From a virus: a DNA stretch of 64,000 nucleotides. Under the pieces are notes generated by a model. The model saw nothing but the letters and a program-made list of their open reading frames with translations. It was not told where the DNA came from and searched no databases. The stretch is taken from the IMG/VR virus record IMGVR_UViG_3300025018_000100. One strand, written 5' to 3'. Position numbers and translations under genes: made by a program. Below are positions 46,248-57,917 of this stretch, piece after piece. The stretch's first letter is position 1, and every line of letters starts with the position of its first letter.

Positions 46248-49200
46248 TTAAACTCCTATTGCTGTTACTGTAACTTCTACACCTGTAACGGCTGATCCTG
46301 TATTGCTATACACATTTATATTTGCCCCATCTTTACTCCATCCAGGAATCAATACAGGTAAGTAGTTATTATCTGAACCTAAAGTCAATGTAATATTAGG
46401 TGGCTCAATAAATTGTCTGTTAGAGAAATCTATTGATTGTGGTGAAGTGGTAACAGTTATTGTTTCTGTATAAATTTTATTTTCTATATCAATGCTATAA
46501 TTAAGTTTATCTAGTAAATAATCTGCCTGATTAGGTTGTGAGTTTTGTACATTAAATCTAACTTGAAACCAACGGAAATTAATAGTAGAGCCACCATAAG
46601 GCTTCCAACCATCATTTGTAACCCCATCAGAGAATACTAGAGCATTAACATTACCGTTCGCATAGTAAGGATTAGCTGTAGTATATCTATACTCTAAGTT
46701 AGTATCAATAATACCGTTTTGTCCTTGGAAAGTTAATTGACCAGTATCATCAATAAATTGTTCTAAATTCACTAACTCATAACTAGTAGAACTATTAATA
46801 TTAGATAATAAATTAGTACCTGTTGGCATACCGTTAGCCCAATAACTATCACCTAGTGCTATAGCATTAGCGTTTATTACTCCAGCTATTAACGCCCAAC
46901 TATTAGCATTGGCATCGTCTCCAACATACTGTCCAGCATTCCAAATAGCATAAACATTTCCTGCATCTCCACCACTTGTGAGAGTACGGAAGTATGAATT
47001 ATATGATACAACAGCAGCCGTAGCATTGTCAAATCCTAAAATATGACCTATTCCCCCGAAATCTACGTCTACTAATACGTTATCTCCTGGAGAAGTTTCT
47101 GTAGCACCTGTTAAAATAATTTCTTTTAAGTCATTAAAAGTAGATGTTATACCCTGAGAACCATTAGCAGTTACAATAATACTTCCAGTAATTACGGAAC
47201 CCACATCTCTGATTTGAGTAGTATAAGTAGCGTTATCATCAGCTAAAAGATCAGTAGGACTACCACTAATAACAGTCCAACCAGAACTAGAACCATTAGC
47301 ATTATCTACAAGTCCAGAAGATGCACTACTTAAGCCACCTAAACTATCTGCAAAACTAGGATAATTATTTTCAAAAGGAGCTTCATTTGGTTGTCCCGTG
47401 ATAATGTTACTTGAAGGTTCGTCTTCACTCCAAGCTTTATATGCATCAATTCTAGCAGGTCTTTGTGTACTAATTGTTAATGTTCTAATTTCTTCACTCT
47501 CATTACTGCTAGTATCTTTAGTCTTAAAGAAATAGGTATAAACTCCATAATTTCCAATACTTAGAGTTACACTATTTGCAGGGGTAGCTACCTTAGCTAC
47601 AGGATCAGCAATAGGCCATTTACTAGCAGCATCAGCTGGGTCTACAATACCTCCAAGTCTTTTAATAATTATTTCATTTAGATCTAAATCAACAACAGTC
47701 CCGTCAGAATTAGTAGGAACCTTCCAAATAAACTTAAGAGTTTGTCCTTCTTGGCCCCCTGCTACTCCTTGAATATTTAAAGGAGGTGCAGATTTACCAA
47801 TTATACTTTGAGAAGCTTCAGCAGTAATACCACGTATACCTTTATTTAAAGGTACAACTCTAACAGTAATACTATTAATAGCAGAAATTCTGCCTCTATC
47901 AAGGTTATTAATAACATAACGAATCTTACCATCTGAGTCAATACCAGAGGCTGGAAGTTTAACAGTATTAAAAGTGGATAAATCTGCGCTAGAAGAGTTT
48001 AATTTGAAACTAACTTCGTAGTCACTAACTTCTTGATCTAAAATAGCATCAAAAGATATTACAGCTCTTACTATAATCCCTTGTGAAGTATCCTTATAAA
48101 GTTGCTCACTGATAGTAAGATTATCTACTTTTTTAATAGGTATTTCATTAATTTGTACTTCTTTTCTAACAAAAGGGCTTCTTCTACCGCTACTATTCAT
48201 ATTTCTAGCTCTAACTATACTAATTCCCGGATTAACGTCTTTCAATACTCTATCCGAAGACAGTGTTACAGGTTTAAAATCTAAGGGAACTTGAATATTG
48301 TATAATTGATTATTAGCTAAGTTAAAGTTACCTGTATACACATTTTCATTGTAATCTAAAGAAAAACTGTTAGCTACTACATCAACATTACCTATTAGAC
48401 CTACGATATCATTACTGATGTTAACAAAAGTTAAGCCGGAAACATTAGCTTTGATATTATCTCTTAATTCTATTTCATAAAAATTAGCAGTAGTCAAATC
48501 AACATTGTATGTAGGACTACTAATATCATAACTTACATTAGCTACAGCATATACGTTTTCTGAATAAAAACTAATATTATCACCAATTTCTACAGCAGGG
48601 GCAGTATAATAGTCTACTCTTGTTTTTAGTAAGCGAGTACCACTACTAATATCTAAGGTGATATTAGATAAATTATCCCAAACCCATGCACCTTTTGGTT
48701 CGATATTACCATCTACCCATACAGTTATTTCATTACTAGTTCTTGGTTTAATTTTAAGATCAAAAGTATTACTTCCTGTAAGGTTTTCAACATTATTTAC
48801 TACTTGTCTGTATTTATTTGAGCCAGTAATATAAAACTTTTTACTAGTAAAAAATCTAGTATCAATAATTTGTGCTAGCTTAGCATAAAAAGGTGGTGTA
48901 GGTAATACATCAAATAGCCCGACTCCTTGAGATTGTTCATTTTCAAAAGTAATAGTATTAGCACTAATATTATAAGATAAAATATTACTACTATATTGAG
49001 TTACGCTAGGATTGTATCCCACAAAATCTAATGCAGCTCCGGTATTAGATTTTTCATTAACAGGTACAGAAATGTAGTCTAAACCTTTTAGTCCATTAAA
49101 AAAGCCATCATTAACCTCTAAAAGGTGGTTAGAAAAATTTTTATCTTCTAACAAATTTAACCCTTCAACATTTAGCAATACATTAGAATCCATATCAATA

Positions 49201-49331
49201 GAAGATATTTCGGTTACTAATATAGGAATAGTTCCGGCTATACCTATAAATCCATTTTTTCCTGTTATAGCAGCAGTGTCTCCATTAGAAACATCACCTA
49301 TACTATTAGCTGTAAAATATAAACTTGCCAT
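46248..49331 (-). CDS. Large tail-tip/fibre protein with FN3-like domains (C-terminal gpJ-like part)
   Basis: VRARN..GRRS, GKSAPP.NI, Y.FKTKDTS.NES; coupled to J by TAATG. Confidence 0.7.
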   Translation of the reverse strand: MASLYFTANSIGDVSNGDTAAITGKNGFIGIAGTIPILVTEISSIDMDSNVLLNVEGLNLLEDKNFSNHLLEVNDGFFNGLKGLDYISVPVNEKSNTGAALDFVGYNPSVTQYSSNILSYNISANTITFENEQSQGVGLFDVLPTPPFYAKLAQIIDTRFFTSKKFYITGSNKYRQVVNNVENLTGSNTFDLKIKPRTSNEITVWVDGNIEPKGAWVWDNLSNITLDISSGTRLLKTRVDYYTAPAVEIGDNISFYSENVYAVANVSYDISSPTYNVDLTTANFYEIELRDNIKANVSGLTFVNISNDIVGLIGNVDVVANSFSLDYNENVYTGNFNLANNQLYNIQVPLDFKPVTLSSDRVLKDVNPGISIVRARNMNSSGRRSPFVRKEVQINEIPIKKVDNLTISEQLYKDTSQGIIVRAVISFDAILDQEVSDYEVSFKLNSSSADLSTFNTVKLPASGIDSDGKIRYVINNLDRGRISAINSITVRVVPLNKGIRGITAEASQSIIGKSAPPLNIQGVAGGQEGQTLKFIWKVPTNSDGTVVDLDLNEIIIKRLGGIVDPADAASKWPIADPVAKVATPANSVTLSIGNYGVYTYFFKTKDTSSNESEEIRTLTISTQRPARIDAYKAWSEDEPSSNIITGQPNEAPFENNYPSFADSLGGLSSASSGLVDNANGSSSGWTVISGSPTDLLADDNATYTTQIRDVGSVITGSIIVTANGSQGITSTFNDLKEIILTGATETSPGDNVLVDVDFGGIGHILGFDNATAAVVSYNSYFRTLTSGGDAGNVYAIWNAGQYVGDDANANSWALIAGVINANAIALGDSYWANGMPTGTNLLSNINSSTSYELVNLEQFIDDTGQLTFQGQNGIIDTNLEYRYTTANPYYANGNVNALVFSDGVTNDGWKPYGGSTINFRWFQVRFNVQNSQPNQADYLLDKLNYSIDIENKIYTETITVTTSPQSIDFSNRQFIEPPNITLTLGSDNNYLPVLIPGWSKDGANINVYSNTGSAVTGVEVTVTAIGV

Positions 49332-52306
49332 TAATTAATTCTCTCAATAATTTTAGTAGATGAAGGACTAGCGTATTCAAACTCAGTTCTTAAATCTAGT
49401 GGATATGCCGAAGTATCAGTTCTAGCATCAATTTCTAATTCATATGTTGTAGACCCATCAGCTAACCTTCTAGCTCTTGGTATTACATTTAATATAGGTG
49501 CTGGTGGAGCAATTAATGGACTGATAGTATCTATATATTTAACAGGAATATAATTTATAAGAGTATCACTATCAATATAAACATTAGATACATATTCACT
49601 AGCAGAAATCTGAATTTGGTCATCACCTCTTCTAGTTAATTGATTAACTTTGAATAATTTCTCACCTTGATTGGTATAAAAATTAGATGGGTCAATCTCC
49701 CCAATGGACCATAAGTCTCCTTTTACTGGGACATTATTACTAGTCCAATCTATATTAAAACCAAAAGTACTAAAAGTTTTGGAGTCTGGAATAAATCTTT
49801 GACTTACCGCTACCTCTACAAGATCAATACCAGATTGAGTATTGCCTGTTACATCAGCAGAAAAAGTGTTTGATAATAAATATAAACTTAATCTATCAGA
49901 TTCCATATTAATTACTCGTAATGCGAGAGGTTTCGTATTACTAGTAAATACGCTCTGACTTAATGCAGGAGAGGTAAAATGTTCTAATATAACAGTATCT
50001 TCTCCTATAACAGAATTACTAGCCACCCTTCCTGCGTAACCCCAAGCAGTTCCCGGCATTCTTTGAGATACACTAATAACATCACCGATAGTTAAATTAA
50101 CCGCTTCACTAGGAACGGTGAAATCAATTTTTCTTCTAATATATTTAGTAGATGCAATTAAATATTGAGCAAACCTAATAGCTTGCCCTCGTCTAGTACA
50201 ACCAGTAGCTTCAATTTGTTTTACATTCTCAATTTGATTTAATTCTCTTAAAGATTGAGGATCGTCTACTCGTACTGTTTCTCTCTTATAATGGTTATTA
50301 GGTTCAATATAACTAATTTCTACTCCGGTAATTAATTCTGATTCCTTAATACCGCTAATATTAACACTATCTTTGATAATATTAGCTTCACTGAAGTGAG
50401 CTACAGGAACTTCGTCGGGTAAATCCACATTAAGAGTAATTTTACCCCCACTATAGAATAGTACTCCACGGAAAATAGCAGCTACCTTCTGAATAATATC
50501 AAAAACCTGAGCCTGTGAACTTAATAATAAATCACAAATAAATCTACGCTCTTTAATAGCAATACCTGCATTTAGCCCGATTAATGCCTCGTTTACGGCA
50601 GTAAATCTATTTCTAGGCTTATATCTAAATGTACTGTCACTATATCCTACTACCCCATCAAATCTGCCGGTTTTTGGATTTACAGCATCACAGTATTGAG
50701 CAATTTTATAGAATCTATATTTATCAATATTAGCTTCTGGTATACCTAAACCATAAGTTGAATTAGTTAAAATATCATATAAAATCCAAGCAGGATTCTG
50801 AGTCCAAGCATAACTAAAAGTTCCGTCCCAAAAACCTTTGTAAATTTCTGGGTTATCTTCTGTTAGTACGGTACTACCAGTAGCCTGAAGTCTATATCCA
50901 TTAGCTTGGTAGCTGTTAATATTTGTTCCTGTAGGATCATTTACTACTTCTATTTCTCGCCAATCCACTTGGAAAGTAGAACTATTAAAGTCGGGAATAA
51001 TAGGCTGATTATAATTACTAGGTACCTTACATAACATACCTTTTACAATAGAGGTAAATGTTGGAATACCGCCTCGATATTCTGCAACAGCTTTAATAGC
51101 ATAGCCGATTACAGCTGTTCTTGTGTAAGCTACATCTTCGTGAGTTATTTCATCCCAAGAAATAAACTGAATAGCATCCTGAATTTTAGAACTATCACTG
51201 TCATTACTAGTTTTTTCTATAGTAAATCTATGACCACTAGAGCTTTTTGAAGCTTCTGGAATGGGAATATCGACAGTATATTTATACTGTACGTTAGTTT
51301 TCCCATCAATAGTAATAGGTTTTTCTGCAATTATATTAGAACCCGTATTATCATATACAGTAATCTTAGTAGCTACACTCCCAGAAAAAACATTTCCTTT
51401 ATCATCCATAGTTTGTAAAGCATTAATAACGAATACAAATCTTAGTACATCAATTCTAGACACACTAGTGTTTTGTAATACTACAGCAGCTCTAGGAATA
51501 CCTTCTAAATTACCTTTCTTTAGAGTAACAGGGTTACTTAGAGATTGAGGTACGACTGTTTCTTCACCAAAAATGTTTAGAGGTGTTTGAGTTAATGTAC
51601 CTGTAGTACTATCAGTATAAAAATATTCAGTGTTAATAGTACCATCAGTACTTAGATTAAGTAAGTCATCAATGTTACCATCATTAATTTCAATATCCTG
51701 AGGACCGTTTGGGTTAATTCTATATACAGGACCTTCACTAAGAGCTACAGTAACAAACATAATATCTGTAGAAAACAAATTATTTGGACTTTCTACCCCA
51801 GGGGCTGCAGTAGCACCCTTTCCACCACCTTTATTATGAACTAAAATATTATTAGCTATATAAGTATGATTATTTTCTACGGTTAAATTATACACAATAT
51901 CAACTTCTTTAGTAGTTTTACTAGCAATAGCTGTCATAGTACCAGTTTCTTGTACTAAACAATCTCCCTCTTTAAGAAGGCTTGCAGGTAAAAAGTCACC
52001 ATCTGGGGTTAAAATCCAGTGGTTATCTGTTACTACTAATTCGGTTTTATTCCATAATTTAAATACATGTACAGTATGTTTCTGTTCATGAATGTGAATT
52101 TGTGTTACTCTTTGTTGAGTAAAATTACCTTCACTATCATAACTAGTAACGTAAGTATCAACTCTAATATCTTCAATAGCAAGTTGACCGTTAGCTGTAG
52201 ATATCAAAGTACCTTCAGCGAAGCAACCACCCTTCCCGCCATGAATAAATGGAACTTTTTTATCTGCTATATTGAAATAATATTTAAAATTGTGGTTATT
52301 AAACAT
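49331..52306 (-). CDS. Central tail fibre/tip attachment protein gpJ-like, with N-terminal Hint domain
   Basis: KGGGKG..ESPNNLFS..ALSEGP, VPSNY, WDGTF..AWTQNPAWILYD, IAQYCD, GCTRRGQAIR (lambda J motifs). Confidence 0.92.
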   Translation of the reverse strand: MFNNHNFKYYFNIADKKVPFIHGGKGGCFAEGTLISTANGQLAIEDIRVDTYVTSYDSEGNFTQQRVTQIHIHEQKHTVHVFKLWNKTELVVTDNHWILTPDGDFLPASLLKEGDCLVQETGTMTAIASKTTKEVDIVYNLTVENNHTYIANNILVHNKGGGKGATAAPGVESPNNLFSTDIMFVTVALSEGPVYRINPNGPQDIEINDGNIDDLLNLSTDGTINTEYFYTDSTTGTLTQTPLNIFGEETVVPQSLSNPVTLKKGNLEGIPRAAVVLQNTSVSRIDVLRFVFVINALQTMDDKGNVFSGSVATKITVYDNTGSNIIAEKPITIDGKTNVQYKYTVDIPIPEASKSSSGHRFTIEKTSNDSDSSKIQDAIQFISWDEITHEDVAYTRTAVIGYAIKAVAEYRGGIPTFTSIVKGMLCKVPSNYNQPIIPDFNSSTFQVDWREIEVVNDPTGTNINSYQANGYRLQATGSTVLTEDNPEIYKGFWDGTFSYAWTQNPAWILYDILTNSTYGLGIPEANIDKYRFYKIAQYCDAVNPKTGRFDGVVGYSDSTFRYKPRNRFTAVNEALIGLNAGIAIKERRFICDLLLSSQAQVFDIIQKVAAIFRGVLFYSGGKITLNVDLPDEVPVAHFSEANIIKDSVNISGIKESELITGVEISYIEPNNHYKRETVRVDDPQSLRELNQIENVKQIEATGCTRRGQAIRFAQYLIASTKYIRRKIDFTVPSEAVNLTIGDVISVSQRMPGTAWGYAGRVASNSVIGEDTVILEHFTSPALSQSVFTSNTKPLALRVINMESDRLSLYLLSNTFSADVTGNTQSGIDLVEVAVSQRFIPDSKTFSTFGFNIDWTSNNVPVKGDLWSIGEIDPSNFYTNQGEKLFKVNQLTRRGDDQIQISASEYVSNVYIDSDTLINYIPVKYIDTISPLIAPPAPILNVIPRARRLADGSTTYELEIDARTDTSAYPLDLRTEFEYASPSSTKIIERIN
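51833..52225 (-). mobile_element. Minimal Hint (intein/BIL-like) domain, 131 aa, with Lys at +1
   Basis: GG|CFAEGTLI ... VTDNH ... VYNLTV ... YIANNILVHN|KGG; no endonuclease. Confidence 0.9.
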
Positions 52307-53075
52307 TAAATTCTTCTCCTACCTTTACTATATCATTTTTACCGTGGTTCGCTGTCTTTACATACCCACTAACAAACTGACCACCTTGTCTATGCATACC
52401 ATAAATTAAGGCTAGACTATTACTACTGTCGGTACTATTAGTTAAACTACCAAACGCATCATTATCTTTTCTGTCTTGAATATCGGTTTCTTGTTCGGGG
52501 GCACTGGGTTTTTTTTGAAATAAAGACATAATACCTCCAAGTATTAGATTAATTCCTATTCCCATCAGTGTTTGTGCAGCATATCCAGCTACTCCAGTAA
52601 GCCCACTATATGCTGCAGCACTTTGAGCAAGAAAACTACCTCCCGCAGCACCTCCCGCAGCTCCTCCAACAGCCGCGCCTCCAGCTGCTCCCCCAGCTGC
52701 CCCAACTGCTCCGCCAGCCGCTAATAAAGCAGGAAGAGCAAAAAAAGCAAACGCAGCTATAGCTGCACCAAGTATAATACCACTTTTACCACCCCCACCA
52801 CCACTAATCGTAGGAACTACATATACTTCAGTAATATATTTTGGATTTTTTATTATAGTTGTTTCGGTAATCAGTTTCTTATCTTGATCTAAAATTAATA
52901 ATAAATCCTTACTAGTTTCGAAGTTACTAATATCAGTAAACTTTAAAATCAATTCTTCAAATGTACTTTTTAAAGCATAACTAAGACCTAAAAAATCAGC
53001 CACATCAAAAGTAAATTCTGATACATTACTTGTGTATTTATGAAGAGAGGTGTGAAAGTGTACTTTTATTTTCAT
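52299..53075 (-). CDS. Tail assembly protein I-like (ubiquitin-like N-terminus), copy 2
   Basis: MKIKVHFH beta-grasp start, VVPTISGGGG, Gly/Ala hydrophobic tract, FGSL.N..LIYG. Confidence 0.8.
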   Translation of the reverse strand: MKIKVHFHTSLHKYTSNVSEFTFDVADFLGLSYALKSTFEELILKFTDISNFETSKDLLLILDQDKKLITETTIIKNPKYITEVYVVPTISGGGGGKSGIILGAAIAAFAFFALPALLAAGGAVGAAGGAAGGAAVGGAAGGAAGGSFLAQSAAAYSGLTGVAGYAAQTLMGIGINLILGGIMSLFQKKPSAPEQETDIQDRKDNDAFGSLTNSTDSSNSLALIYGMHRQGGQFVSGYVKTANHGKNDIVKVGEEFNV

Positions 53076-53813
53076 TTAAAATTCCTCTCCTACATTTATC
53101 ATATCAGTCTTACCATGATTTTTAGTTTTTATATATCCGCTCACAAACTGACCACCAATTCTGTGCATTCCATATATAATACCTATCGCGCTTCTACTAT
53201 CTGTACTATTAGCAAGACTACCATAAGCATTATTCTCTGTTCTAGCCCCAGAATCAGGTACTTTTTGCTGGTTATTATTAATTTTAGGTTTTGGAGCTAA
53301 CCCAGAGAGTACCAACGAAAAACCTATACTTAAAGCTAATTGCCCTAAAGTAGTTAAACTTACTGTAGTAGCAGCGGCTGCTGCGGCTGCTCCACTACCT
53401 GCTGCAGCGATAGCACCGCCACTAAGAGTAGCACCACCAGCTGTTGAGCTAGTAGCTAATAGACCTAAACTCGCACCACCTGTAAAGAAAGATAATGCAA
53501 CTGCAGCAATAATTATAATACCGGCAATTAGACCACCATTACCGCCGCCACCATTTATAATAGGTACTAACGTAATCTCTTTCTTAGGTTTAAAAAATAC
53601 TTCATCCATAGGTACTACTTTACCATCACTTACTAGTAAAGCTTCTTCTTTAAAGTTATCTTTAACTACTGTTCTAAAATAGTTTTCAAGGTCTGGAAAC
53701 ATATTAGCTGCTGCTGTAACAGCATCACAATAACTTGTTACGTTTACTGTAATACTATCTACACCATTAGTAAATTTAGTTAATAGCTTATGAAATCGTA
53801 AAGTTACCTGCAT
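53076..53813 (-). CDS. Tail assembly protein I-like (ubiquitin-like N-terminus), copy 1
   Basis: MQVTLRFH, LVPIINGGGG, hydrophobic tract, YGSLAN..IIYG. Confidence 0.8.
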   Translation of the reverse strand: MQVTLRFHKLLTKFTNGVDSITVNVTSYCDAVTAAANMFPDLENYFRTVVKDNFKEEALLVSDGKVVPMDEVFFKPKKEITLVPIINGGGGNGGLIAGIIIIAAVALSFFTGGASLGLLATSSTAGGATLSGGAIAAAGSGAAAAAAATTVSLTTLGQLALSIGFSLVLSGLAPKPKINNNQQKVPDSGARTENNAYGSLANSTDSRSAIGIIYGMHRIGGQFVSGYIKTKNHGKTDMINVGEEF

Positions 53814-53823
53814 CTATAAACCT

Positions 53824-54195
53824 CTATTTAAGGTGTCGAACCTCAAAAGGTTCATATCTTAACATTTTTAGTTTTTTATCGTACCAATAGATAAAGAACT
53901 TATCATTCCATCCCACAATAAATTTATAATTATCAAATGTTGTGCTGGCCATATCTTGTTCACTAGGAATAGGATTTTCATCACCAGGGTGACTATGAAA
54001 TATACCCCAACAAGTGTCCTCATGGTCTAATAATGCTACAGGGTCTAATACAAAACTAGTTTTAGGATATAGGCTAATATTTTTACAAAATACGTATTTA
54101 AAATCTTTAGTTATTAATCCGCACGCTTCTCTTGGGTAATCTGCGTGAGCATGTCTACCCATATCATCTTTTAATTTGTTATAAAGCTCTTCCAC
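53824..54195 (-). CDS. JAB/MPN+ metalloprotease (N-terminal half of lambda K)
   Basis: YPREACG ... HSHP ... PSEQD (E, HxH, S, D). Confidence 0.92.
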   Translation of the reverse strand: MEELYNKLKDDMGRHAHADYPREACGLITKDFKYVFCKNISLYPKTSFVLDPVALLDHEDTCWGIFHSHPGDENPIPSEQDMASTTFDNYKFIVGWNDKFFIYWYDKKLKMLRYEPFEVRHLK

Positions 54196-54611
54196 CTGTA
54201 ATGTCCTTCAGTGTATTGTTTGTAATAGTTACCATATGATCCGATCCAGCTATTTCTATCAATAGTAATTTGAAGTAATTTATTATCTCCAACGTACATT
54301 GCCACATGATTTGGCATATTTGTTGCGCCTAGAGTCATTACTATAATATCAAAAGGCCTCATTTCACCATTATGTATTTCAACCCAGCCATATTTTTCAT
54401 CTCTAAACATATTAAGAGGGTGGTGTAAATCTGGATGATTGTACCAATCATCATCGGTTATATTACAAAAGGTACTTGTACTATACCATATATCAATATC
54501 ATGTTCTTTCTTTAGTACATATTTGATTAAATTACCACAATCAATACCGGTTACTGGGTCTTCCCCTAAATGTTTATAGGGTAATCCTTTATATTTTTCA
54601 TACCAAGTCAT
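54171..54611 (-). CDS. NlpC/P60 peptidase (lambda K C-terminal-like), copy 2
   Basis: GLPY..G..GIDC ... NHVAMYVG. Confidence 0.85.
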   Translation of the reverse strand: MTWYEKYKGLPYKHLGEDPVTGIDCGNLIKYVLKKEHDIDIWYSTSTFCNITDDDWYNHPDLHHPLNMFRDEKYGWVEIHNGEMRPFDIIVMTLGATNMPNHVAMYVGDNKLLQITIDRNSWIGSYGNYYKQYTEGHYRWKSFITN

Positions 54612-55023
54612 AGTGTCTATAACATCCTATTAATATTTTTATATCATCTTCATTAAGTAATTTAAAAGTTGCGTATCCGTTAAAAGGTAAATGAATATAA
54701 GTACCTGCTTCAATATACATTCCAAAATGAACATGTCTCATATTTTTAGTTCTAAATATAAGAATATCATATTCTTGGATGTCTCGCAAATTAATTTTTT
54801 TCCAATTATTTATTTCGTTAATTATAGTTTCATAAGGTACAATTTGATACCATTTTGCATCAATATTAGTAACACCATCAGTACCTGCTCTACTTAAACA
54901 TTCTTTTAAATCTATATTTAGAAATCTATTATATATGTCAACAATTAAGGTTACGCAATTCATCCCCTGCCATTCATGTTTTATCTTAATGTAATGTTCA
55001 TATTTTTTTAAACCAGTGCTCAT
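54598..55023 (-). CDS. NlpC/P60 peptidase, copy 1
   Basis: GMNCVTLI ... YDILIF ... HFGMYI..G.YIH. Confidence 0.8.
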   Translation of the reverse strand: MSTGLKKYEHYIKIKHEWQGMNCVTLIVDIYNRFLNIDLKECLSRAGTDGVTNIDAKWYQIVPYETIINEINNWKKINLRDIQEYDILIFRTKNMRHVHFGMYIEAGTYIHLPFNGYATFKLLNEDDIKILIGCYRHYDLV

Positions 55024-56179
55024 AATAAGGAAAAACCTCTATAAAATTTTCATTTCTTATACTATCTAATTTATCTGTATAATTTTTAAATTTAGATAGA
55101 AGATGACTATTATCTTGATTGTTCATAAATTTTAACCATACTAATATATGATTAACCTCATTTAAATGTAATCTTTTATCGATAGATAAATATTCTTTAT
55201 ATTTTTTATTTATAATTCTCTTTTCTTCAATAGGTAAACATTGAATGCTTAAATAGTTAGGAAAATATAATAAAGTGCCGTTAAAAAATATATCGTGAGT
55301 TTTGCACCAGTCGATCAACCTTAGCATACTATGTATGCTGTATATGTTAATAACACTACTAATTGTAGTTATATATTGTTTAACTTCCAAGCAATTAGCT
55401 TCAAACTGATCCCAGTTTAGTCCTTTTCTACTATATTCTGCTTCTTTGCCCATACCGTCCATACTAGGCCATAATTCAACTTCGTTGAAGTGGCTCCATA
55501 GTTCAGGTAAATCATATTCTTTATAGCGAAGTACACTAAGATTAGTATTATATGTAAGTCTAAGATTGGTATATCCATTACTAATTAAATATTCTAGTAA
55601 TTCATAATGTTCATCCATCATTAGCGGCTCTCCGCCCGCAAAATAAATTTCTTCTACATTATCTATAAATGTCGGAATGTCGTCCCACAAAGCTGGTTTA
55701 TTCCAATTTTTATGAGGACCTTTGAAATTTGTTTTACCAGTTAATTTCTGCCAATCATTATACCATTTAGTACTACTTTCAGGCCCGCACATTCTACACC
55801 TAAAATTGCAAACATTACTGAATCTAATATCAAAATAAGAAATGGGCACATCTACACTACCGTCAGGGTTAGTTTTATCCCAAAGGTCATGTTTATGTAC
55901 CCATTTTTTATTTTGATCGGTTCTGAAACTAGTCCCGCGTTGAGCCGCTTCGCGGCTATGGCAGGTTAAATAACATTCTCTAGGTATCTCATTATTAATA
56001 TATTGACTTCTAATGTGTTTCATTGGATTGCCATTCCAAACAGCATTATAGCTATCTTCACTAGTACCTAATTCTGTTTTTTCTTTTTGGTTCTGCAAGT
56101 AACAACAAAGTCTATATTTACCTTCTACATCTCCGTGTATATGTATCCAAGGAAGGATACATTTGTTATTATCAGTCAT
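54998..56179 (-). CDS. Radical SAM enzyme with N-terminal twitch domain
   Basis: CILPW..RLCC..C.TC; CNFRCRMC; FAGGEP; YNTN; SMDG; ATG 56179 follows a GAGGGG SD. Confidence 0.92.
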   Translation of the reverse strand: MTDNNKCILPWIHIHGDVEGKYRLCCYLQNQKEKTELGTSEDSYNAVWNGNPMKHIRSQYINNEIPRECYLTCHSREAAQRGTSFRTDQNKKWVHKHDLWDKTNPDGSVDVPISYFDIRFSNVCNFRCRMCGPESSTKWYNDWQKLTGKTNFKGPHKNWNKPALWDDIPTFIDNVEEIYFAGGEPLMMDEHYELLEYLISNGYTNLRLTYNTNLSVLRYKEYDLPELWSHFNEVELWPSMDGMGKEAEYSRKGLNWDQFEANCLEVKQYITTISSVINIYSIHSMLRLIDWCKTHDIFFNGTLLYFPNYLSIQCLPIEEKRIINKKYKEYLSIDKRLHLNEVNHILVWLKFMNNQDNSHLLSKFKNYTDKLDSIRNENFIEVFPYYEHWFKKI

Positions 56180-56218
56180 TATTCCCCTCAAAATTTAAAT
56201 ACAATTATGACGTTTTAT

Positions 56219-56423: not shown

Positions 56424-57917
56424 TTACCTAGGGATAGTTCTACCAGTTCCTGGGAAGCCTCCGAAATGAATATTGTTATTTCTAAGAGTACATGCTTCAA
56501 AGTTTTTAGCACAAACATCTTCTTGTACAGTAAGTACTTCTGCATTATTAATATCAAAGTATCCATTAGCTGTACGATTTTGTGTATCTCCTGGAATTAA
56601 ATCAGAACCATTATCAGGATATTGACATTCGGGACCTTTATATGACCAAGGACAGCTATTCTTAAAATACTTTCTTTTTGGCAGCTGTAGTTTGAAATAT
56701 TGAAGCCAACTTACTACTGCGAATACTGCAACAATCGGATTTAAAGTATCTAAACTATCAATTTTAAAGTTATCAACTACGAAACCGTCTTGGTCAGCTT
56801 CTTCATTTACGATGTACAGCTTATCCCCAGCTTTTACGTTTGGAACTTCTGTATCGGTGATTAAGTTATCTCCGAACATATTAATAATCTGATAAGTTTC
56901 TTGATTAGAATTACTACGTACTATGTCGCCAATTCTATAAGGAAGTGTAGATGCTACAGTAATAAGATTAGGAGTAGTTTCTCTAACAATGCTATATTCA
57001 GGCCATACGTCAAGAAAGTTAGCGTAAGTACTTTTAATTTCGATTACTCCGCCTAGTAAGTCTCTAGTATCAATTTTTAGTTTATTCCAAGTATCTCCAA
57101 GACTAATAGTTGTATCATAATCAAAAGCGACGTTGTATCCGCCTCTGCTAGCTGCTATATTTTCATCAAAGTCTGGATGTTCTGGATTAGTACGTGGATC
57201 AATATTGGTAACATATTCACCATTAACAATAGCCGTATTACTATTACTGCTATTATTTCCTACAAGAAAAGGGTTTTCTACAAGAGTAGTAATTAGATTA
57301 TCAAAGTTACTAATAGTAATCTGAATTTCATTTACTTGCCCACTACTGTCTATACCAATATCACCACTTTCGATAGGGTAAGGAAGAAAACTTTCTCCAC
57401 CAAATAAACATTCATACTGAATATCACTAGCTGTTTCACCCCTAATCTCGGCAAATCTGAAAGGTAAACCATCGGGCCAAGGATATCCTGTACCCTCTCC
57501 TGTAGGATTTCCTGCTTGATTTGGTGGGTACCATTCTCCTGGGTAGTATAAAGTGTAAAGTCTAACTGAGGGTCTTTGAACAAAAGCGTTCTTTTCCCTA
57601 ATAAAATTACTATTTTGAATGTTAGTTATCTCACAACTACTAACAACAGTGGTTGCATTATAACTAGGCTCAAAATAGGGTTGTTGATTGATATCGACAC
57701 TTCCACCACTTGTAGTAATAAAAGTAGTATTGCAGGTTTCTGCAATATTATACTCTTGTAGTACGTTATCTACTTTAACCTTAATAGTGTTATTCTCAGG
57801 ATTAACGTTAGCAATAAATCCTTCAGTACCGCTTGTGATACCAATAATATTGTTACCTTGTGTAAATCCTACAGTGCTATTAACTGTTAAAATGTAATCG
57901 TATGTACGTGTTGTCAT
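56424..57917 (-). CDS. Minor tail protein L-like (Fe-S cluster Cys motif), extended
   Basis: PYPIE, ITISN, LPKR..CPWSYKGPECQY..DVCAK..AC..R..HFGGFPG. Confidence 0.85.
   Translation of the reverse strand: MTTRTYDYILTVNSTVGFTQGNNIIGITSGTEGFIANVNPENNTIKVKVDNVLQEYNIAETCNTTFITTSGGSVDINQQPYFEPSYNATTVVSSCEITNIQNSNFIREKNAFVQRPSVRLYTLYYPGEWYPPNQAGNPTGEGTGYPWPDGLPFRFAEIRGETASDIQYECLFGGESFLPYPIESGDIGIDSSGQVNEIQITISNFDNLITTLVENPFLVGNNSSNSNTAIVNGEYVTNIDPRTNPEHPDFDENIAASRGGYNVAFDYDTTISLGDTWNKLKIDTRDLLGGVIEIKSTYANFLDVWPEYSIVRETTPNLITVASTLPYRIGDIVRSNSNQETYQIINMFGDNLITDTEVPNVKAGDKLYIVNEEADQDGFVVDNFKIDSLDTLNPIVAVFAVVSWLQYFKLQLPKRKYFKNSCPWSYKGPECQYPDNGSDLIPGDTQNRTANGYFDINNAEVLTVQEDVCAKNFEACTLRNNNIHFGGFPGTGRTIPR

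Follow-up and report, generated by a model that had tools for sequence, protein, structure and literature searches.

A Hint domain at a glycine tail of a lambda-J-like phage tail tip protein and its putative self-removal

The Hint domain and its host protein

The window analysed here is a stretch of 64,000 nucleotides of DNA from an uncultured phage (IMG/VR record IMGVR_UViG_3300025018_000100), and the element in question is a Hint domain that lies close to the N-terminus of a lambda-J-like tail tip protein encoded on the minus strand. The host protein, called J below, matches PHROG 31 'central tail fiber J' at E 8.6e-114 and has Pfam matches to FNIII-A_GpJ and Phage-tail_3. The Hint domain separates a short leader (the N-extein) from the body of J (the C-extein, whose first residue is position +1). 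The features of the gene are listed below with the evidence for each.

49331..52306 (-), lambda-J-like tail tip protein J, 991 residues, carrier of the Hint domain (open reading frame and translation, Pfam, PHROG)
52226..52306 (-), N-extein of J, a 27-residue leader with the end VPFIHGGKGG and a predicted beta-hairpin (translation, homologues, AlphaFold2 model)
51833..52225 (-), Hint domain C28-N158, 131 residues, of BIL (bacterial intein-like) / PT-HINT type, without an endonuclease domain (Pfam, PDB sequence matches, fold)
52211..52225 (-), block A, Cys28-Phe-Ala-Glu-Gly, with Cys1 as the predicted thioester-forming residue (Cys1 in 303 of 304 related Hint domains)
52085..52099 (-), His73 (Hint position 46), signature of the tail-type clade (conservation by group)
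52016..52030 (-), block B, T93-D-N-H96-W97 (T93, N95, H96 and W97 invariant in 35 homologues)
51833..51874 (-), blocks F/G, NNHTYIANNILV-H157-N158, with the terminal Asn as predicted cyclising residue (V156, H157 and N158 invariant)
51815..51832 (-), start of the C-extein, K159-GGGKG, with Lys at +1 (K159 and G160 invariant; aligns with the lambda J start MGKGSSKG)
51701..51787 (-), first conserved motif of the J body, PNNLFSTD...EGPVYRINPNGP, where the hub domain starts (near-invariant among homologues with and without the Hint domain)

Is the start of this reading frame sound? The ATG of J overlaps the stop codon of the gpI gene before it (ATGTTTAA) and is preceded by an AGGAG-like site, and the leader is conserved from Met1 in the homologues, so the start can be taken as sound. 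The leader (residues 1-27) ends in KKVPFIHGGKGG, and in the AlphaFold2 model it has strands at 10-13 and 16-19 with low predicted local distance difference test (pLDDT) scores. At its other end the Hint domain closes with HTYIANNILVH157-N158, which is followed by K159-GGGKG and then by ATAAPGVESPNNLFSTD...EGPVYRINPNGP. Cys, Ser and Thr are absent from positions +1 to +7, the earliest of them being a Thr at +8. The PNNLFSTD motif corresponds to residues of about 15-40 in lambda J.

The tripeptide KGG stands on both sides of the Hint domain (AAG GGT GGT / TGC ... AAT / AAA GGT GGT in the DNA, with 8 of 9 bases identical). A preliminary description of the locus had drawn attention to this repeat, and the repeat is confirmed, with HN/KGG in all 42 homologues that carry the domain. 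The repeat alone is weak evidence, since both flanks of the Hint domain lie in a Gly/Lys-rich linker; its conservation across the homologues appears to be the stronger point.

Family and fold of the domain

The segment scores 42.1 bits against Pfam PT-HINT (PF07591; cut-off 27.7, E 1.3e-10) and covers profile positions 1-136 of 137. In a phmmer search against the PDB it matched 6TMM/6Y75 at E 2e-10 and 2LWY at 5.6e-9. In the AlphaFold2 model most of residues 30-155 have pLDDT above 90, with means of 86-97 over blocks of ten residues, and Foldseek gave probability 1.0 against BIL domains, inteins and the Hog domain of Hedgehog. Superposed on 2LWY, the model has a template modelling (TM) score of 0.87 and a root-mean-square deviation of 1.7. 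The fold, the N-terminal Cys nucleophile and the TxxH of block B are all present, and assignment to the Hint superfamily is secure.

To which class within the superfamily does it belong? Two features of canonical inteins are found: the terminal His-Asn (H157-N158), and a host protein that also occurs without the insert with its flanks contiguous, the site being here a low-complexity linker and not a functional motif. The third, Cys, Ser or Thr at +1, is replaced by an invariant Lys159. A canonical intein of classes 1-3 is therefore ruled out, since the +1 nucleophile is missing and invariantly so. An A-type BIL or PT-HINT domain is indicated by a score over the curated threshold and by His-Asn followed by a non-nucleophilic residue (VHN/K). 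In the BUBL type, Cys1 comes right behind the Gly-Gly of a beta-grasp domain; J has in this place only the 27-residue leader with its tail motif. In gpI proteins with a related Hint domain the N-extein matches the N-terminal domain of gpI (PHROG 32), for which the beta-grasp fold was modelled in the gpI of the window only. The preliminary description had reported a Hint domain in which Cys1, TxxH and His-Asn are intact and +1 is Lys, had denied it canonical splicing and had placed it in a BIL-type frame of cleavage or ligation. The translation, the PT-HINT score and the fold bear out the first of these claims, the invariant +1 Lys the second, and the third agrees with the closest solved homologue being BIL2 (PMC8616854).

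With A-type BIL domains such as the Clostridium thermocellum domain 2LWY (PF07591) the J domain shares the mini Hint fold, Cys1, TxxH, His-Asn, a +1 residue other than Cys, Ser or Thr, and a site in a variable linker instead of an enzyme active site. A-type BIL hosts are secreted bacterial adhesins and toxins, whereas the hosts here are the phage tail-tip proteins J and gpI, and the tail Hint domains differ in their Gly/Lys-rich flanks behind a ubiquitin-tail-like motif and in the signatures His46 and TxNHW. BIL2 of the Tetrahymena thermophila BUBL1 locus (6Y75/6TMM) is both the best solved sequence match and the top Foldseek match. It shares TxNH (TVNH in BIL2), His73 of J aligns with its H48, and its Cys1 follows a ...RGG tail; its second named His (H125) aligns with Asn in J. 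BIL2 belongs to a eukaryotic (ciliate) polyubiquitin locus, where it sits between two ubiquitin-like domains with a whole such domain as N-extein, while the N-extein of J is the tail-like leader only and the whole domain is found in the related gpI proteins. H48 has been named in connection with Zn binding (PMC8616854). Finally, canonical class 1 mini-inteins (gp41-1, Npu DnaE, Ssp DnaB) resemble the J domain in fold, in blocks A, B, F and G and in having Hint-less alleles with contiguous flanks; unlike them, the J domain lacks the +1 nucleophile, which is their defining requirement, has no homing endonuclease, lies in a low-complexity linker and is inherited vertically, not sporadically, in the J clade.

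Conservation and inheritance in J homologues

A search with residues 1-230 of J gave 42 Hint-carrying homologues at 37-56% identity, and every one of them reads ...G-(G/S/A)-K-G-(G)/C ... V-H-N/K-G-G. HN/KGG also occurs in all 80 of the best IMG/VR loci (out of 276 relatives), a set that is biased because HN/KGG was contained in one search pattern. Across 35 homologues at 31-56% identity, C28, T93, H96, H157 and N158 are all invariant; in the leader the same holds for P19, G23 and G27, with I21 and K25 at 90% or more, and in the C-extein the invariant K159 and G160 are accompanied by G161 and K163 at 90% or more. All catalytic residues are thus under purifying selection.

Hint-less J homologues of about 850 residues have the leader Y-F-x-I-N-G-K-x-V-P-x-I-x-G-G joined straight to the J body. 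A FastTree phylogeny of the J body gathers the Hint-bearing proteins in one large group and 36 Hint-less ones in a separate clade with support 99; three further Hint-less proteins are nested among the Hint-bearing ones, so that the domain must have been lost at least three times with the leader kept. The label of Hint presence changes 5 times on this tree, against a mean of 27.8 after shuffling. In one loss product the site has become ITG-KGGGKGGG, compared with IRGSKG/Hint/KGGGGKGGG in its sisters, and this would fit a deletion between the K-G-G repeats. The comparison of homologues with and without the domain, which the preliminary description had called for, has thus yielded a leader that is contiguous in Hint-less J.

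The GC content of the Hint domain is 0.31, equal to the window average, and a recent insertion is ruled out by this lack of an anomaly. Since Hint presence also tracks the J-body tree, the domain seems to be an old resident of this J lineage.

Related Hint domains in other proteins

The Hint domain with its flanks was further searched with phmmer against 1.84 billion representative proteins, which gave 7,919 matches at E<=1e-3 and 655 at E<=1e-10; the family members described below come from the best 150 of the 7,919. Among 304 complete domains from the best matches, Cys1 is found in 303, the terminal His-Asn in 301 and Gly at -1 in 230, and the +1 residue is K in 216, G in 45, A in 16, R in 6, S in 6, C in 4 and T in 2.

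Many diverse J-like proteins, four of them confirmed by Pfam, have one or two Hint domains at the extreme N-terminus. Their leaders are often tiny (MKGKKG/C, MGSGGGDG/C, M..IIGSGGGG/C), and their C-exteins run into a lambda-type start, HN/GGGGKGGGHTPIEAPDNLKS compared with MGKGSSKGHTPREAKDNLKS in lambda. In one group the leader motif (hydrophobic-hydrophobic-x-G-S-G-G-G) is found before the Hint domain and once more after it, as HN/GGHRERFPVISGSGGGGSKGGG, and it looks as if the domain had come with a copy of its own N-flank. This group comprises P0161, P0188, P0190, P0195, P0211, P0220, P0224, P0230, P0233, P0235 and P0239.

In gpI homologues the Hint domain sits right behind the last strand of the ubiquitin-like domain, in the arrangement ...TIDIIPIVEGAGGGGGGGG/C...HN/GGGGKxGGGGKGG followed by hydrophobic helices, and Hint-less sisters read EGAGGGGGGGGGKGGGGKSGGGKGG at the same site. 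Such proteins are P0183 (from a locus on a 1.7-kb contig) and 26 further clusters at 90% identity (P0246-P0271), with loci at L083:9001-10317 and L085:9001-10362. The gene order of these loci is M-L-K(JAB+NlpC/P60)-gpI(Hint)-J, with the JAB motif intact. By its order of parts (ubiquitin-like domain, Gly-Gly, Hint), the Hint-bearing gpI would be a phage version of the ciliate arrangement. The same type of Hint domain is found just ahead of the conserved tape-measure segment in the tape-measure-like proteins P0159 (Hint at 199-334) and P0146 (Hint at 205-345), and in lambda a glycine-rich region of gpH is known to be cleaved, by an activity yet to be assigned (PMC12617516).

In a cellular sister branch of the family a signal peptide is followed by ARGGGG/C and by two to five Hint domains in tandem, with only K-G(1-5) as linker, and the C-terminal domain is Tim44-like. 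Its hosts are cultured Legionella, Verrucomicrobiota, Planctomycetota, Nitrospirota and DPANN archaea, and Lys is found at +1 in 162 of 170 domains. Examples are LegA of Legionella massiliensis (L099:2983-5574), L124, L087, L100, P0044-P0056 and P0099-P0134.

A tree of the Hint domains, likewise built with FastTree, places those of J and gpI in one clade (118 rows, support 89) with a few host switches between J and gpI, and the cellular domains fall mostly apart. The tail-type domains share His46, which is at 100% in the J-K, J-G and I-G groups, and T-x-N-H-W, whereas the cellular clade has T-x-E-H-P and lacks His46. Within the tail-type clade the K label at +1 changes 17 times, at least 4 of the changes being forced by well-supported branches. 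Gly stands at +1 in 22 J-type and 23 gpI-type domains, whose conserved active-site positions are identical to those of the Lys type, and no residues specific to the Lys type were found in comparison with the Gly type. There is no Lys within 12 residues in 12 of the 22 Gly-type J domains, and Cys, Ser or Thr occurs at +1 to +3 in none of 70 J-context domains. Lys/Gly-rich linkers are present in Hint-less J and gpI as well, including those of lambda. Taken together, the tail clade appears to consist of BIL/PT-HINT-type domains specialised to the Gly tails of the tail-tip ubiquitin-like/JAB module.

The ubiquitin-like tails and the JAB protease

The genes upstream of J on its strand make up a lambda-type tail-tip module: an L-like gene, a radical SAM/SPASM gene, two NlpC/P60 genes, a JAB gene and two gpI paralogues. 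Those nearest to J are the following.

52299..53075 (-), gpI-like paralogue 2, with a ubiquitin-like domain, the tail VVPTISGGGGGKSG (52779-52820), two hydrophobic helices and a C-terminal plug region (PHROG 32 'tail assembly protein', AlphaFold2 model)
53076..53813 (-), gpI-like paralogue 1, with the tail LVPIINGGGGNGG (53532-53570) (PHROG 32)
53824..54195 (-), stand-alone JAB/JAMM metalloprotease, 123 residues, with the E...HSH...S-x-x-D motif intact (Pfam Prok-JAB, E 7.5e-12)
54171..55023 (-), two NlpC/P60 genes (Pfam NLPC_P60; PHROG 329 and 30)

The JAB and NlpC/P60 genes (53824-55023) represent an equivalent of lambda K split into three genes. As in lambda, the order is L, peptidases, gpI and J, and gpI has a MoaD/ThiS-like beta-grasp domain, a Gly tail and a glycine-rich linker (PMC1779556). 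Unlike in lambda, K is split, gpI is duplicated, a radical SAM gene is inserted, and J has an added leader with the gpI tail motif and a Hint domain; PMC1779556 describes no Hint domain. Residues 1-92 of gpI paralogue 2 are modelled mostly at pLDDT above 90 (with a dip at 49-55), show a beta-grasp-like order of strands and helices and end in ...VVPTISGGGGG, and the best fold matches of this domain are MoaD, SAMP1, CysO and ubiquitin. The model agrees with Iyer et al. 2006 (PMC1779556), who predicted that the ubiquitin-like domain is freed from gpI, at the last Gly of the domain, by the JAB domain of lambda K.

Does the J leader belong to the same system? In the long frames of the window (22,075 residues) the motif [VIL]-P-x-[IVLMF]-x-G-[GSA] has three matches, compared with a shuffled mean of 0.5: one in each gpI tail and one in the J leader. 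A P-x-hydrophobic-x-G-G tail is thus common to the leader and both ubiquitin-like domains. Among the N-terminal positions of 41 gpI-like sequences, only the P and the G of P-x-x-x-G are invariant, and P19 and G23, with the same spacing, are invariant in 35 J homologues. When the gpI alignment was compared with the J alignment by hhalign, nothing significant was found (probability 0.3, E 0.2). Homology of the J leader to the gpI tail is thus not upheld, and the match is at the level of the motif. The preliminary description had supposed that JAB would cleave the J leader; this we still infer, the profile comparison having added nothing to it, and it is the short motif and the gene neighbourhood that suggest a link between JAB and the Hint domain.

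A scenario for self-excision of the Hint domain

What does the Hint domain do in J? That it removes itself from the protein is very likely, judging from its sequence and those of its relatives. From the computed fold, family, residues, conservation and distribution we infer every chemical step of the following scenario. An N-S acyl shift at Gly27-Cys28 would first give a thioester; cyclisation of Asn158 would then cut Asn158-Lys159 and free the alpha-amine of Lys159; and this alpha-amine would attack the thioester, so that the leader would be re-joined to J by an ordinary peptide bond. Such BIL-type splicing would not require Cys, Ser or Thr at +1. Hydrolysis as a side reaction would leave J starting at Lys159.

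We give this scenario, BIL-type self-excision with re-joining by the alpha-amine and hydrolysis as a side path, slightly less than an even chance. The alpha-amine route is favoured because it would work with +1 Lys and +1 Gly alike, because it restores the contiguous leader-J of the Hint-less relatives, and because it accounts for the conservation of Cys1, of Gly at -1 and of the whole leader. Both products, leader-J and J from Lys159, should work, since Hint-less relatives keep the leader contiguous and the start of lambda J (MGKGSSKG) corresponds to +1, a likeness that the preliminary description had pointed out and that holds. For the BIL domain 2LWY, Aranko and co-workers are said to have found cleavage and splicing without a +1 nucleophile in 2013. 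BIL cleavage and splicing without such a nucleophile are also credited to Dassa et al. 2004 in the place where PMC7765530 cites that work. Removal of the Hint domain is probably needed for the tail tip, since in assembled lambda tips gpJ is seen from its very first residue onwards (PMC12617516) and the last ring of the tube is built from its N-terminal hub domain (PMC10721106). The domain may be best read as a long-resident passenger of mobile origin at ubiquitin-tail-like sites, and not as a dedicated ligase.

Several points weigh against re-joining by the alpha-amine. BIL2 has been reported to form an isopeptide between a Lys epsilon-amine and a C-terminus without ATP (PMC8616854), and a review states that A-type BIL domains cleave and cannot ligate (PMC7765530), so that the literature consulted is divided on this point. 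The Lys of the cellular tandem linkers is probably selected by Hint chemistry, for which the alpha-amine route gives no obvious account. In many J lineages the N-extein has just 6-8 residues; such tiny N-exteins, like the leader motif that is repeated after the domain, imply that C-terminal cleavage alone would be enough there. Moreover, in tblastn searches of 50,697 phage records with the J N-terminus and with a Gly-type Hint-J fragment, no place matched 80% or more of the query: the former gave Hint-only matches, mostly in DNA helicases and hypothetical proteins, and the latter, among the records listed, matches to the J start only. In the prophages of reference genomes there was likewise no match spanning the Hint domain and the J body, nearly all matches being Hint-only; the loci inspected there hold cellular tandem-Hint proteins.

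Might the Hint domain then serve for cleavage only? Cyclisation of Asn158, with or without thioester hydrolysis, would release J from K159-GGGKG, and leader and Hint domain would be discarded as a self-cleaving N-terminal pro-piece, as has been proposed for PT-HINT domains that release toxin modules; the resulting end is the one predicted from a JAB protease acting at such Gly tails. The lambda-type start of J at the +1 equivalent speaks for this, and so do the trivial N-exteins (MKGKKG/C, MGSGGGDG/C), the leader repeat in one group and the verdict of PMC7765530 on A-type BIL domains. It is also consistent with the gpI proteins, in which the Hint domain stands exactly at the boundary of ubiquitin-like domain and linker, the presumed site at which the ubiquitin-like domain is severed: the resolved part of lambda gpI begins only at residue 101 (PMC11101478), directly behind VPRVAGAKSG, or at 134-135 (PMC12617516, PMC10721106). 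However, Cys1 and Gly at -1 are nearly universal although the N-terminal chemistry would be dispensable, the leader is conserved far past positions -1 to -3 in the same pattern as in Hint-less J, and JAB is intact where the sole gpI carries a Hint domain, which suggests that the Gly tail is still presented to JAB. We regard cleavage without re-joining as rather unlikely.

Another explanation follows the BUBL precedent, in which BIL2 between two ubiquitin-like domains forms an ATP-free isopeptide (PMC8616854). The thioester at Gly27 would be attacked by the epsilon-amine of a Lys (Lys159, Lys163 or one in a neighbouring protein) and the leader would stay on as an isopeptide-linked miniature ubiquitin-like tag; in the Hint-bearing gpI proteins the whole ubiquitin-like domain would be transferred, with JAB as the matching isopeptidase. 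TxNH and the His at 46/48 are common to BIL2 and the tail-type domains, the Hint domain sits behind a ubiquitin-tail-like motif in J and behind a PHROG 32 domain in gpI homologues, and +1 Lys is invariant in the J clade and found in the same 162 of 170 cellular tandem domains, whose linker has no other evident role. Against this stand the 22 J-type and 23 gpI-type domains with +1 Gly and the same active-site positions, the 12 Gly-type J domains with no Lys nearby, and the Lys/Gly-rich character of Hint-less J and gpI, owing to which the Lys may belong to the extein. We therefore consider tagging of this kind improbable. The preliminary description had counted Lys+1 among the possible acceptors; a dedicated Lys nucleophile is unlikely, because +1 switches between Lys and Gly without catalytic change and because 12 of the 22 Gly-type domains have no Lys nearby. 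The cross-linking of the tail tip that it also proposed is rejected on architecture, for the acyl group of the thioester is a free leader of 27 residues, which could not cross-link subunits. Its idea of isopeptide tagging keeps the BIL2 precedent and the tail shared with gpI in its favour and has the Lys/Gly switching against it. On the whole its Hint/BIL frame stands, cross-linking does not, attack by Lys+1 is weakened, and the alpha-amine route was not considered in it.

Carried to its full extent, the analogy with ciliates would make the tail-tip Hint domains phage counterparts of BUBL, that is, ATP-free ligases independent of E1, E2 and E3; we hold this to be quite improbable, and give the same low standing to its working form, in which the Gly tail of gpI or of the J leader would be loaded as a thioester and passed to a Lys of the linker or of a neighbouring protein, with JAB as isopeptidase. 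That the Hint domain is catalytically silent and remains part of J in a structural or decorative role at the tail tip is highly improbable, since its catalytic residues are invariant at 31-56% identity, which is unexpected for a purely structural domain, the N-terminus of J is ordered in the lambda tip complex (PMC12617516), and Hint-less relatives function without it.

Bearing on tail-tip maturation

Secreted bacterial proteins and ciliate BUBL loci are the known settings of BIL-type Hint domains. Inteins are known in actinophage tape-measure proteins (bioRxiv 10.1101/2025.01.02.630785). In the papers searched, neither J nor gpI is described as carrying a Hint or BIL domain, nor are such domains mentioned in PMC1779556, and a Hint clade at Gly-Gly sites of phage tail proteins is apparently undescribed. 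The silence may be because no match to Hint domain and J start together was found in the 50,697 phage records or seen among the reference-genome matches. What is new to the literature searched is a coherent clade at the Gly tails of J, of gpI and of some tape-measure-like proteins.

Why does it matter? The prediction made in 2006 of a ubiquitin-like/JAB system in lambda-type tails (PMC1779556) gains a second, testable processing device at the same sites, with a bearing on the maturation of J and gpI before the tail tip is assembled, and the tail-tip module becomes tied by sequence to the only Hint domain reported for ubiquitin-like conjugation. If the tail Hint domains were indeed counterparts of BUBL, there would be a real ubiquitin-like conjugation step in the assembly of lambda-type tail tips. 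A Hint domain of 131 residues that works with Gly/Lys flanks and without Cys, Ser or Thr at +1 would also suit a traceless ligation or cleavage tag.

Other genes of the module

Directly downstream of J lies an open reading frame of 1027 residues (window 46248-49331, minus strand) that has no Pfam or PHROG match and is presumably a fibre or receptor-binding protein. The L-like protein (56424-57917, minus strand) has 497 residues, of which only about 370-493 match Phage_tail_L; no match was found for its long N-terminal extension. The radical SAM/SPASM gene (54998-56191, minus strand) has the L-like gene on one side and the NlpC/P60 genes on the other. Since there is an Fe-S cluster in lambda gpL, a maturase or modifying role for the radical SAM/SPASM gene is conceivable.

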